Positions 27,184-29,021 of a stretch of 42,841 nt of DNA are shown in pieces. The stretch lies in IMG/VR virus record IMGVR_UViG_3300030019_000001; one strand, written 5' to 3'. The notes beneath the pieces are model-generated. The model was not told where the DNA came from. It made no database searches and saw nothing but the letters and a program-made list of their open reading frames with translations. The stretch is from a virus (Duplodnaviria; Heunggongvirae; Uroviricota; Caudoviricetes). Numbering within the stretch: the stretch's first letter is position 1; the number at the start of each line of letters is the position of its first letter. The translations under genes and the position numbers were made by a program.

Positions 27184-28078
27184 AGAAGGTAAAGAATACA
27201 AATTTAAAAATAAAGATATAAAAATATTTGGTACTAAAATTAATGAGGCTCAACAGATTGATCCAAATATTATACCAAAATTTCCTATCAACAAACCTGT
27301 TAAATTTGATGTGGAATTAATGAAAAAAGCTATTAAATATGGCTTGGTTATTCTTCTGAATTATAATGGAGATGAGGATCGCTGGAAAGGTGGTAGAGAA
27401 AGAACAATTCAGCCTATGGTACTTGGAGTTAATAAGAATACAAAGAATATGCTTGTAAGAGGCTGGCACTTAGAAGGATGGTCTGTATCACAAAAAGCTG
27501 AAACAAAAAAAGTTTGGAGATTATTTAAAACTGATAACATAAAGTCAATGACATTTACTGGTAATTTTTTTAGGCTTCCACCCAAAAATTATATGCAAAA
27601 TGATAGAATTATGACAGAGAAGATATTAGCCAAAGCTGATTTTAATGAAATAAGAAGAAATCAGAACACTTTATTGAAAGGTGGACAGATACAGTCAGAA
27701 GAGGAAACGACTATCTCCACACCAACGGGAGGAGTAGTGAGCATAGAAATAACCAACTCTAATAGTCAGATAGATTTAAAAACTCCATCAAAGAACTTGC
27801 TTATCAATAAAAATAATTATGATGCTAATAGATTTTTGAGAGATTCAAGTACAAAGTCTATGAAATTTTCTGTAATGAAGAGTATGTTTGGTAATAATTA
27901 TCTTGTATTAGTAGGTGCTATGGGTACAATTAATAGACAAATTAAAGTATACGATGGTAAAAAATTAATAGGTAATTATAGATGCATTAAAACATTTTTA
28001 GGTTCTGATTTAAGTAACAATAAAATTGTAGACGGTAAAAATATATTTGACCTATATGTATTCAATAGAAAAATTTAA
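27176..28078 (+). CDS. Hypothetical protein (300 aa) overlapping the HNH gene by 8 nt
   Basis: ORF with an ATG; segment VLGVNKNTKNMLVRGWHLEGWS; no confident family assignment. Confidence 0.5.
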   Translation: MFEEGKEYKFKNKDIKIFGTKINEAQQIDPNIIPKFPINKPVKFDVELMKKAIKYGLVILLNYNGDEDRWKGGRERTIQPMVLGVNKNTKNMLVRGWHLEGWSVSQKAETKKVWRLFKTDNIKSMTFTGNFFRLPPKNYMQNDRIMTEKILAKADFNEIRRNQNTLLKGGQIQSEEETTISTPTGGVVSIEITNSNSQIDLKTPSKNLLINKNNYDANRFLRDSSTKSMKFSVMKSMFGNNYLVLVGAMGTINRQIKVYDGKKLIGNYRCIKTFLGSDLSNNKIVDGKNIFDLYVFNRKI

Positions 28079-28081
28079 TAT

Positions 28082-28429
28082 ATGAAATATTTAAAAAATT
28101 TTGAAAATGAATTAACCACTGAATATAAAGTAGGTGATTATGTATCAATTAACTATGATACAAAATCTAACACATTAACAAAGTTGAAGGATTTTGTGAA
28201 TAATTCGATAGGAAAAATAATGTTTATTGATGATAAAAGTATGATTATTCAATATGTTAATATTCCAGATAAAATAAAACATTTTTTTTCTGATAAAAAT
28301 GTTGGAAAAGATAAAATAAAAAATTCTGTATTTTTTTGGAATAAAAATAATACAATAAAAAGATTAGCAACAGATGATGAGATAATAGAATATGAAGCAA
28401 TTAAAAATACAAACAAATTTAACATATGA
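28082..28429 (+). CDS. Small protein, terminal-cassette family A (MKYLKNFENELTTEYKVGDYVSI ... KNTNKFNI)
   Basis: Cassette termini; close paralog of 28426-28767. Confidence 0.6.
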   Translation: MKYLKNFENELTTEYKVGDYVSINYDTKSNTLTKLKDFVNNSIGKIMFIDDKSMIIQYVNIPDKIKHFFSDKNVGKDKIKNSVFFWNKNNTIKRLATDDEIIEYEAIKNTNKFNI

Positions 28430-28767
28430 AGCACTTAAGATTATTTGAAAGCCAACTAAAGCCTAAATATAAAGTAGGAGATTATGTTCATTTAGATATG
28501 GAGCCAGATTTTACTTATGATGATTGCTTAGGACAAATACTTAAAATAGATAAAAACGGATTCATAAACGAACCTGAAGAAACAGATTCAAATAAAAAAC
28601 ATGATAATTATATTAACACATTAAATCTTTACCCATATAAAGTTAAAATATTGGATGGTAAATTCGATGCTGAAGAAGGCTTAATAGATAGATATATGAA
28701 AAAAGATGAAATAGAATATTTTGAGTATTTATTAAAGAATAAAGATACTAAAAAATTTAACATATGA
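28426..28767 (+). CDS. Small protein, terminal-cassette family A (MKHLRLFESQLKPKYKVGDYVHL ... KDTKKFNI)
   Basis: Cassette termini; ATGA overlaps on both sides. Confidence 0.6.
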   Translation: MKHLRLFESQLKPKYKVGDYVHLDMEPDFTYDDCLGQILKIDKNGFINEPEETDSNKKHDNYINTLNLYPYKVKILDGKFDAEEGLIDRYMKKDEIEYFEYLLKNKDTKKFNI

Positions 28768-29021
28768 GCAAATTAATAAATGATATACATAAAATGTTGG
28801 GTTATCTTAAAATAATACAACAATATAATTATTTTTCACAATTAGGAAATGAAGATGATATCGACTATTTAAAAGATAAAGTTGATAATTTATATTATAT
28901 AGATGACACAGATAAACTTATAAAAGATTTTGAATGGTGTGCAGATATGGTAAATCAACTTTATGATCAAGTTGATTCAGAATTTAAAAAGAGAATGTTA
29001 ATCGAAGAACAACTATACTAA
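28764..29021 (+). CDS. Small acidic protein (85 aa; MSKLINDIHK...)
   Basis: ORF starting at the AACATATGA junction; its stop is inside the hairpin. Confidence 0.45.
   Translation: MSKLINDIHKMLGYLKIIQQYNYFSQLGNEDDIDYLKDKVDNLYYIDDTDKLIKDFEWCADMVNQLYDQVDSEFKKRMLIEEQLY

Follow-up and report, generated by a model that had tools for sequence, protein, structure and literature searches.

The question raised by this locus is whether a short sequence that recurs at the boundaries of its genes is conserved as DNA or as protein. The locus lies in IMG/VR virus record IMGVR_UViG_3300030019_000001, the whole 42,841-nucleotide (nt) stretch of which was analysed and is referred to here as the window. It consists of a plus-strand gene for a protein of 300 amino acids (aa), 27176-28078, followed by three smaller genes, 28082-28429, 28426-28767 and 28764-29021. 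These three are joined by AAATTTAACATATGA, the ATG of each following gene lying inside the ATA-TGA that ends the one before. The 300-aa gene ends in FNRKI-TAA, and across its end runs AAATTTAATATATGA (28071-28085), the same 15-mer in the +1 frame relative to the gene. The original prediction, whose coordinates, gene ends and sequences were all correct, took this out-of-frame copy to mean that the motif is conserved at least partly as DNA, for example as a promoter, a 3'-processing signal or a recombination site. Our analysis gives a different answer: the 15-mer is very probably the nucleotide image of a conserved protein tail followed by ATGA, and not a signal carried by the DNA as such. What is new is an uncharacterised, large protein family with two terminal tags. 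The features on which the argument turns are listed below, with the prefix L denoting individual loci.

27176..28078, plus strand: 300-aa gene, function not assigned, which anchors the array; it ends ...VFNRKI-TAA and is followed by the 3-nt spacer TAT
28071..28085, plus strand: out-of-frame copy of the 15-mer, an exact match made up of the end of K-I-TAA, the spacer TAT and ATGA
28082..28429, plus strand: cassette gene, 115 aa, with the tag MKYLKNFE, a predicted SH3/KOW/Tudor-like barrel, a C-terminal helix and the end ...NTNKFNI
28415..28429, plus strand: junction 1, K-F-N-I-stop overlapping the ATG of the second cassette; ATGA at 28426-28429
28426..28767, plus strand: cassette gene, 113 aa, MKHLRLFE...DTKKFNI; orthologs in L005, L008 and L012
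28753..28767, plus strand: junction 2, K-F-N-I-stop overlapping the ATG of an unrelated 85-aa gene; ATGA at 28764-28767
28764..29021, plus strand: 85-aa gene outside the family, last of the plus-strand operon; it stays last after two, five or six cassettes in relatives
29021..29047, no strand: putative bidirectional terminator hairpin between convergent genes, with a 12-bp stem flanked by A and T runs

Exact copies of AAATTTAAYATATGA were found in the window at 28071, 28415 and 28753 and, on the minus strand, at 31308-31322, four copies where dinucleotide shuffles of the window gave an expectation of 0.02. When one mismatch was allowed there were eight copies against 0.48 expected from shuffles, and six of the eight were in frame. 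The search for the motif independent of frame, which had been proposed as a check in the original prediction, was carried out on all non-redundant related DNA (141,184 nt in eight loci) using the degenerate motif AAATTYAAYWTATRA, and its outcome went against a signal of this kind. Among the 38 matches, 36 were the in-frame last 15 nt of an open reading frame (ORF). The two matches outside gene ends compare with a chance expectation of 0.73 in third-order Markov simulations (Poisson P(>=2) = 0.17), and the motif is thus not enriched outside in-frame gene ends. One of these two exceptions is the window copy at 28071; the other is a site in L012, in a 356-nt gap adjoining a cassette, which we suspect to be the end of a decayed cassette.

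ORFs ending in K[FY]N[IL] make up 13 of the 61 in the window, 9 of 26 in L005, 11 of 26 in L008 and 3 of 18 in L010, and the 13 tail genes of the window lie on both strands and in three places (1394-2703, 5898-7893 and 28082-31727). A count of codons and termini over the eight non-redundant loci together with L031 yielded 45 distinct family genes, which between them use 17 different 15-mers. The aromatic residue is encoded by TTT, TTC, TAC or TAT, the Asn by AAT or AAC and the last residue by ATA, ATT, ATC, TTA, TTG or CTA, while the stop is TGA or TAA; orthologs from different phages differ in the tail by synonymous changes and by exchanges between I and L. Conservation is at the level of the peptide. 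Codon usage is extremely biased (AAA 90%, TTT 86%, AAT 87%), as a result of which a conserved peptide appears as near-identical DNA. The tail is also kept at convergent gene ends, as where 1394-1729 faces 1747-2223; being convergent, these two genes have tails with no start, or anything else, downstream.

There is nevertheless a minor constraint at the DNA level, which falls on the last codon and the stop. Of 28 family genes ending in TGA, 27 overlap a downstream start through ATGA, whereas none of the 17 ending in TAA, convergent ends included, has an overlapping start; the gene end is ATA-TGA or TTA-TGA where there is an ATGA overlap and carries TAA otherwise. The proposal of DNA-level conservation holds, on grounds other than those given, for what the embedded ATG imposes on the last codon and stop, but not for a frame-independent signal. 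The 85-aa gene 28764-29021 is, as had been stated, unrelated to the two cassette genes upstream (BLASTP E=6.7), and it shares their junction because the junction belongs to the tail of the upstream gene. The two cassette genes themselves, 28082-28429 and 28426-28767, had been described as close paralogs. They are paralogs (E=7e-9) but distant ones, with 28% identity and a similarity that lies mainly at both ends and in KYKVGDYV.

The peptide is conserved far beyond this locus. Searching 1.84 billion representatives with a profile of the SH3-like subfamily gave 2013 representative clusters at E<=1e-3, nearly all 100-130 aa in length. The termini were surveyed in 95 family representatives that share no more than 50% identity with one another. 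All 95 end in [FY]N[ILV]; 61 of them end in KYNL, the DNA of which differs from AAATTTAAYATATGA at several positions. The N-terminal consensus MK[YH][LI]Kx[FY]E is present in 93 of the 95 and Glu8 in 86, and the conserved positions of this tag are 4 (L/I), 7 (F/Y) and 8 (E). With the termini trimmed, 36 family proteins of four loci fell into 14 groups unlinked by BLAST at E<1e-3. One core is modelled as an SH3-like barrel, and a 204-aa member in L008 that starts MKYIKQFE and ends ...ANKFNL contains ankyrin repeats (Ank_2 4.8e-27). Both AlphaFold2 runs gave residues 1-11, though among the best conserved, predicted local distance difference test scores (pLDDT) below 50, and the last residues scored about 55. 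From sequences and models taken together, the termini thus appear to be portable tags, exposed and attached to cores that are unrelated to each other.

No relative of the family was found in Pfam, PHROGs, NCBIfam or a PDB sequence search, and no description of it in the literature searched. In a collection of 5.8 billion proteins the matches listed were all metagenomic and nearly all unnamed or 'hypothetical protein', some of them on contigs of up to 711 kb. Relative to L012 and L005, the ratio of nonsynonymous to synonymous substitution rates (dN/dS) was 0.19-0.66 for cassettes and 0.03-0.18 for most neighbouring genes, values that are rough since dS is near saturation. Starts resembling MK[YH][LI]Kx[FY]E are far more widespread than the KFNI tail (for example at 741, 5260, 7218, 8984 and 19487 in the window, and in L025 and L030) and are met both on tail-less proteins, which reach a length of about 250 aa, and in huge phages that are more distant and have 25-35% G+C (GC), so that the two tags are separable. 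A match to P0009, a protein of 1877 aa with tandem repeats of about 55 aa, was set aside as an apparent low-complexity or repeat artefact, its score of 2e-33 against the family profile arising from nine short stretches at profile positions 9-35 around ...IVYQIGDYMLSSEP...

The out-of-frame copy remains to be accounted for. The 300-aa gene beside it has no Pfam, PHROG or NCBIfam match, has orthologs at 19 IMG/VR loci and evolves with a dN/dS of 0.06-0.07. In close relatives the protein ends, in frame, in FNRKI or FNRKL, and orthologs at 38-49% identity end in FDKKI, FDKKV, FDSKI, FDTKI, FDQKI or FDKKA, with a single FSKIIK. Its closing codons AAA-ATT-TAA account for AAATTTAA and the M-K with which the next gene begins accounts for ATGA, which leaves only the 3-nt spacer unconstrained; the probability of a YAT spacer is ~0.07 from base composition. 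The junctions downstream of the 300-aa gene compare as follows.

Window-type phages, between the 300-aa gene and the first cassette: AAATTTAA-TAT-ATGA
L036 and L037, which have a different first cassette: AAATTTAA-TAT-ATGA
L012, L013, L018 and L039: AAATTTAA-AAT-ATGA
L014 and L005: AAATTTAA-AAACTT-ATGA
L015: AAATTATGA, overlapping
L016: AAATTATAATAAATATGG
L008: AAATTATAATTATGA, into a decayed cassette
L029: AAAATATAAAAATGA

The 300-aa protein is 95% identical in L012, L013 and L018, and L039 is a partial contig. The out-of-frame 15-mer is thus present at the orthologous junction in two of eight lineages, the window type and L036/L037, which makes it a feature of a sub-clade and not a conserved one. 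It is probably a lineage-specific coincidence, and the frame-independent conservation that had been deduced from it is not borne out.

The setting in which the junctions are to be read is that of a bacterial virus with operons and not of a eukaryotic virus with polyadenylation. GC along the window ranges from 19 to 35% and is ~23% overall. Sequence comparison points, inconclusively, to DNA of a huge Mahaphage-like phage: a locus of the window type is carried on a 404,781-bp contig, and relatives of the 300-aa protein in an annotated phage collection come only from uncultured phages of 634,780 to 735,411 bp. In size these phages match the largest genomes reported by Al-Shayeb et al. 2020, which were placed there in the Mahaphage clade, with predicted hosts among the Bacteroidetes (PMC7162821). 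For phage DNA, bacterial gene organisation applies and polyadenylation signals are not expected; a framing in terms of eukaryotic giant viruses, with polyadenylation and Mimivirus-type promoters, was dropped in view of the huge-phage relatives. Four independent contigs from four samples agree at 100% over positions 27176-29021, so that the sequence is real and no assembly artefact, and long ORFs are intact under genetic code 11.

A scan for promoters, of the sigma-70 type only, returned 78 sites against 70.9 +/- 8.3 in shuffles, none of them tied to the junctions. No Rfam match was found at the junctions at E<=0.1, and the three junction RNAs are unstructured (free energies of 0 to -3 kcal/mol, z +0.3 to +1.2). 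These results give no support to the promoter or 3'-processing signal that had been suggested, and unstructured junctions suit re-initiation, not processing. To judge from its sequence, the hairpin at 29021-29047 is the probable real terminator of the operon; it has a free energy of -12.6 kcal/mol (z = -5.4) and is conserved at the sequence level in L005, L008 and L012. On this evidence the plus-strand genes up to 29021 form one operon, which begins at 27176 at the latest and probably already at 26290; within it, successive genes are linked by an overlap of 8 nt, a spacer of 3 nt and two ATGA overlaps.

ATGA overlaps mediate the coupling of termination to re-initiation. A junction is made of the codons of the conserved tail K-[F/Y]-N-[I/L]-COOH, the ATGA overlap and the codons of the tag M-K-[Y/H]-[L/I]-K-x-[F/Y]-E of the next gene; where the last sense codon is ATA or TTA, followed by TGA, it embeds the next ATG, and consecutive genes would be coupled in translation. 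The gene layout allows good confidence that the cassette genes are translated as such a coupled operon. The arrays resemble the ATGA-coupled operons of bacteria and phages in having 27 of 28 overlaps, co-directional genes and a single terminator, none of which is unusual, and non-family genes in the window use the ATGA overlap as well. They differ from ordinary ATGA coupling in that ATA or TTA must satisfy both the I or L of the tail and the embedded ATG. Recoding of TGA to give a polyprotein was considered and rejected, as a sense TGA adds only 2-3 residues before a TAA. Elsewhere in the window, the convergent genes 1394-1729 (plus strand) and 1747-2223 (minus strand) have a perfect 17-bp hairpin between them, at 1711-1748 (-16 kcal/mol, z = -6.6). 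Its left arm is formed by the last codons of the plus-strand gene (K-K-Y-N-I-stop), so that tail codons there double as half of a putative bidirectional terminator.

Between relatives the arrays differ in whole units. Counted between the 300-aa gene and the 85-88-aa gene, cassettes number two in window-type phages and L012, at least four in L036/L037 (cas86 and cas113b standing ahead of the pair seen in the window), six in L005/L014, and five plus one decayed in L008, while L016 has none within 6 kb downstream of the 300-aa gene. Two of the array arrangements co-occur in sample 3300030294 (L033, L036). Every gain or loss between relatives concerns whole cassettes, bounded by junctions. The decayed cassette of L008 (9312-9590) has the start MIKLFEELI-stop and, ~250 nt on, an in-frame remnant ...LFRIFNL-stop, which indicates that cassettes also die in place. 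The L036 block that is missing from the window is flanked by the direct repeats AAATTTAATATATGAA and AAATTTAACATATGAA, and window positions 28058-28109 align both to the L014 junction of 300-aa gene and first cassette and to an internal cassette junction of L014. Exact-pattern scans for cas113b in viral and metagenome collections gave no match. The junction repeats, which are coding and ~40 nt long, could supply the homology by which unequal recombination gains or loses complete cassettes, and we have moderate confidence that they act in this way in cassette turnover, a role analogous to PeSL-mediated shuffling (below). Turnover and the homogenisation of tails to I or L fit unequal recombination or gene conversion, or else co-evolution of the tails with a common reader.

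Two known systems invite comparison. Promoter early stem-loops (PeSLs) are repeats that bound small non-essential genes and coincide with the end points of indels and replacements in the hyperplastic regions of T4-like phages (PMC2839356, PMC4122927). The likeness lies in a short repeat at gene boundaries that here, too, appears to match the ends of indels between close relatives; however, PeSLs are non-coding, intergenic and carry a promoter and a terminator, whereas here coding termini and ATGA make up the repeat and there is no intergenic DNA, promoter enrichment or stem-loop. Integron cassettes with their attC sites are similarly arrays of small, promoterless genes on one strand whose number varies between relatives. 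In contrast to these, the genes described here overlap and have no attC-like imperfect inverted repeat at their junctions, and no integrase match was obtained among the window proteins scanned. Two apparent cases of exchange were rejected. L031 (Logan SRR8554076, 935 bp) shows 12 mismatches to the window in 43 nt at the junction and 0 in the next 405 nt. Its positions 1-561 match L036, and its positions 531-935 the window, at 100% identity, and these two segments have exactly 31 nt in common, the k-mer size of Logan. It is therefore probably not a natural mosaic but a chimera of two co-occurring strains that arose in assembly at the k-mer level, and serves as a warning against short Logan contigs as recombination evidence. 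The other case, the identity of 28070-28108 to a cassette junction of the distant locus L010 (39/39 nt), is predicted by the peptides KFNI and MKYLKNFEN together with a codon bias of 86-90% and was discarded as evidence of DNA exchange.

Several observations weigh against explaining the 15-mer by a protein tail and ATGA alone. An exact 15/15 match beside the array is rare for a random site (0.02 per window), and the out-of-frame copy is common to the window type and L036/L037, lineages with different first cassettes, which makes a recombination scar possible. The Asn of the motif is AAC in 16 of 45 genes as against 12.8% genome-wide, a 3.8-fold excess (Fisher P = 1e-4, with genes that are not independent) that may point to some remaining effect at the nucleotide level or to concerted evolution. 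The last residue is genome-specific, 10 L to 1 I in L008 and 9 I to 4 L in the window (Fisher P = 0.005), a contrast that includes four orthologous I-to-L differences; it needs either gene conversion at junctions or co-evolution with a reader of the tail. One could argue from four exact copies against 0.02 expected, one of them in another frame at an array boundary and shared with L036/L037, that the 15-mer is a frame-independent DNA or RNA signal, be it a promoter, a processing or 3'-end signal or a dedicated site-specific recombination site. We consider this very improbable, given that 36 of 38 matches are in-frame gene ends with no significant excess elsewhere, that the sequence exists in 17 variants and distant members mostly carry KYNL, that the tail is retained at convergent ends, that the out-of-frame copy is missing from six of eight orthologous junctions, and that, as mentioned above, promoter-like sites are not enriched, Rfam gives no match, the junctions lack secondary structure and phage DNA is not expected to carry polyadenylation signals. 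Slighter still is the chance that the 300-aa gene truly ends in the family tail through a +1 shift on its A-run (AGA AAA A TT TAA), whether programmed or a 1-nt error. Its +1 frame does read K-F-N-I-stop and ends on a TGA that overlaps the next ATG, and RKFNI is an authentic family ending, as in 29942-30373; but K-F in that frame is automatic from AAA-ATT-TAA, and in relatives the +1 frame gives KFKI or KFKNL, or has no similar ending. Orthologs down to ~40% identity all keep the in-frame ending F-[DNS]-x-K-[ILVA]-stop, and this, with four independent assemblies that are identical, excludes a frameshift or sequencing error.

A more serious competitor, though one that we regard as doubtful, is that the out-of-frame copy is a recombination joint or left-hand repeat, in which unequal homologous or microhomology recombination between a AAATTTAA end and a cassette-to-cassette junction took out or brought in whole cassettes, leaving YAT-ATGA... 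beside the 300-aa gene; junction repeats would then be shuffling points like PeSLs, acting through coding homology. Cassette number varies among close relatives with every cassette complete, the L036 block (cas86 and cas113b) lies between direct repeats, 28058-28109 aligns twice in L014, the spacing of 3 nt is the same as within a junction, the tails of each genome have been homogenised to I or L, and PeSL-mediated modular shuffling in T4-like phages offers a precedent (PMC2839356, PMC4122927). On the other hand, L012-type genomes have the gene order of the window and yet the spacer AAT, the perfect mosaic L031 is probably a chimera, the 39/39 nt shared with L010 are expected from identical peptides and codon bias, and selection alone could leave only whole-cassette indels. 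The recombination site of the original prediction is retained as an inference only, that of a plausible substrate, from the gain and loss of cassettes bounded by junctions. As to the termini, it could be held that they are structural, the N-terminal strand and the C-terminal helix and tail packing together in one ancestral fold, so that the cassettes would be a single domain family. The largest subfamily indeed conserves core positions too (GDY, N-x-IG, Y-x-N-[IV]-P) and the C-terminal helix is modelled at pLDDT ~85. This nonetheless seems unlikely, as the first 11 residues are disordered in both AlphaFold2 runs, the last residues score ~55, and the same termini occur on the ankyrin-repeat protein and on mutually dissimilar cores. 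A conserved protein tail followed by ATGA thus remains our reading of the 15-mer, and portable tags our reading of the termini.

The remaining family genes of the window, with one gene that stands among them, are given below.

1394..2703, both strands: three family genes, 1394-1729 (plus) ending KYNI-TAA, 1747-2223 (minus) ending KFNL-TAA and 2227-2703 (minus) ending KFNI (ATT-TGA)
5898..7215, plus strand: three head-to-tail cassette genes, 5898-6221 (KFNI), 6218-6586 (KFNL) and 6583-7215 (KYNI)
7597..7893, plus strand: cassette gene, 98 aa, ...KTKKFNL-TAA, with no downstream overlap
29543..29887, minus strand: cassette gene, 114 aa, MIIEKFNIF...TTNKFNI-TAA; the ATG at 29887 is the start used in orthologs
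29942..30373, minus strand: cassette gene, 143 aa, ...STRKFNI-TAA
30456..30893, minus strand: cassette gene, 145 aa, with a Cys-containing core, MIINFKIFEN...SNKFNL-TAA
30895..31311, minus strand: hydrophobic, apparently membrane, 138-aa non-family protein inside the minus-strand array
31308..31727, minus strand: cassette gene, 139 aa, MITEFKLFEN...ANKFNI, with the exact 15-mer and ATGA onto the gene for the non-family membrane protein

The trio at 5898..7215 shows the junction codon variants AAATTCAACATATGA, AAATTCAACTTATGA and AAATACAATATATAA. The gene 30895-31311 has its ATG within the KFNI-TGA of the upstream cassette and is present in L008 (14366-14749) but not in L012 or L005.

Around the arrays the window also codes for a Mre11-Rad50-like fusion, a collagen-repeat protein and GIY-YIG-type endonucleases. 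The fusion (33090-36845, plus strand) is a single polypeptide of 1251 aa that combines a Mre11/SbcD-like phosphoesterase with a Rad50/SbcC-like ATPase (Metallophos 2e-11, SMC_N/AAA_29, phrog_35725 9e-42), and it adjoins the arrays in L005, L008 and L016 too. The collagen-repeat protein (37712-39352, minus strand) has 546 aa with collagen triple-helix repeats (1.2e-31) and is the source of the local rise in GC to 35%. The minus-strand genes 31742-32920 and 8000-8887 encode proteins with several modules of ~60 aa (W-T-x-E-x-C-x-x-x-A...C-S-H-M), of which the 392-aa protein additionally has a GIY-YIG domain (1.9e-6); both are probably free-standing homing endonucleases that flank the cassette arrays. 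Upstream of the 300-aa gene, 26290-27183 encodes a 297-aa protein with a DUF723 match and a weak treble-clef zinc-finger match. The same slot holds an unrelated 355-aa DUF7487 protein in L005/L006 (L005 7035-8102) and only a 69-aa ORF in L008, and looks like a place for swappable genes resembling mobile endonucleases. In L005 (20229-20342) and L006 (13293-13448) the arrays are followed, a few kb further downstream, by a ClpS-like gene (PF02617, an adaptor that recognises N-degrons), with no counterpart seen in the window.

A possible use for the two terminal tags is suggested by phage T4, in which the capsid targeting sequence (CTS) is MKTYQEFIAE. The T4 proteins that carry it, the internal proteins IPI, IPII and IPIII and Alt, resemble the cassette proteins in being unrelated, fast-evolving small proteins with a short conserved N-terminal peptide. 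Of its ~10 residues, positions 4 and 7 serve targeting and positions 8 and 10 (Glu10) processing (PMC9026906, PMC3012670), and in Alt both termini can be propeptides (PMC9026906). The conserved positions of the family tag, 4, 7 and 8, fall among these. The family tag differs from the CTS in sequence and is joined by a strictly conserved C-terminal tail, and tail genes make up about a fifth of the window genes compared with a handful of internal proteins in T4; the likeness concerns a possible mode of action only, not membership of a class, for a family that is known from metagenomes only. No prohead protease was identified in the window. By this analogy the terminal peptides could, speculatively, be address tags read by one partner, as in T4 capsid targeting. 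Similarly speculative is the idea that the two form a two-part label that would send the small proteins, fast-evolving and structurally diverse (SH3-like, ankyrin, Cys-rich and others), to a common destination or reader, most plausibly the prohead for co-injection with the DNA, in the manner of a much enlarged T4 CTS system. The junctions, the same ~40 nt at either end of each cassette, would then serve also as recombination homology through which entire cassettes could be duplicated, deleted or swapped with no need of an integrase or a non-coding repeat.

The claim of a DNA signal at these junctions thus reduces to ordinary causes, namely a protein tail, an ATGA overlap and codon bias. What takes its place is a family of >2,000 clusters from metagenomes, amounting to about a fifth of the window genes, in which invariant termini are carried by fast-evolving cores of different folds. 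Its arrays offer a testable case of cassette turnover that may be driven by repeats in coding sequence. If the terminal peptides are indeed tags, a class of huge-phage effectors or virion cargo would become predictable from sequence alone, and the tags might provide a portable means of loading foreign proteins into such phages.

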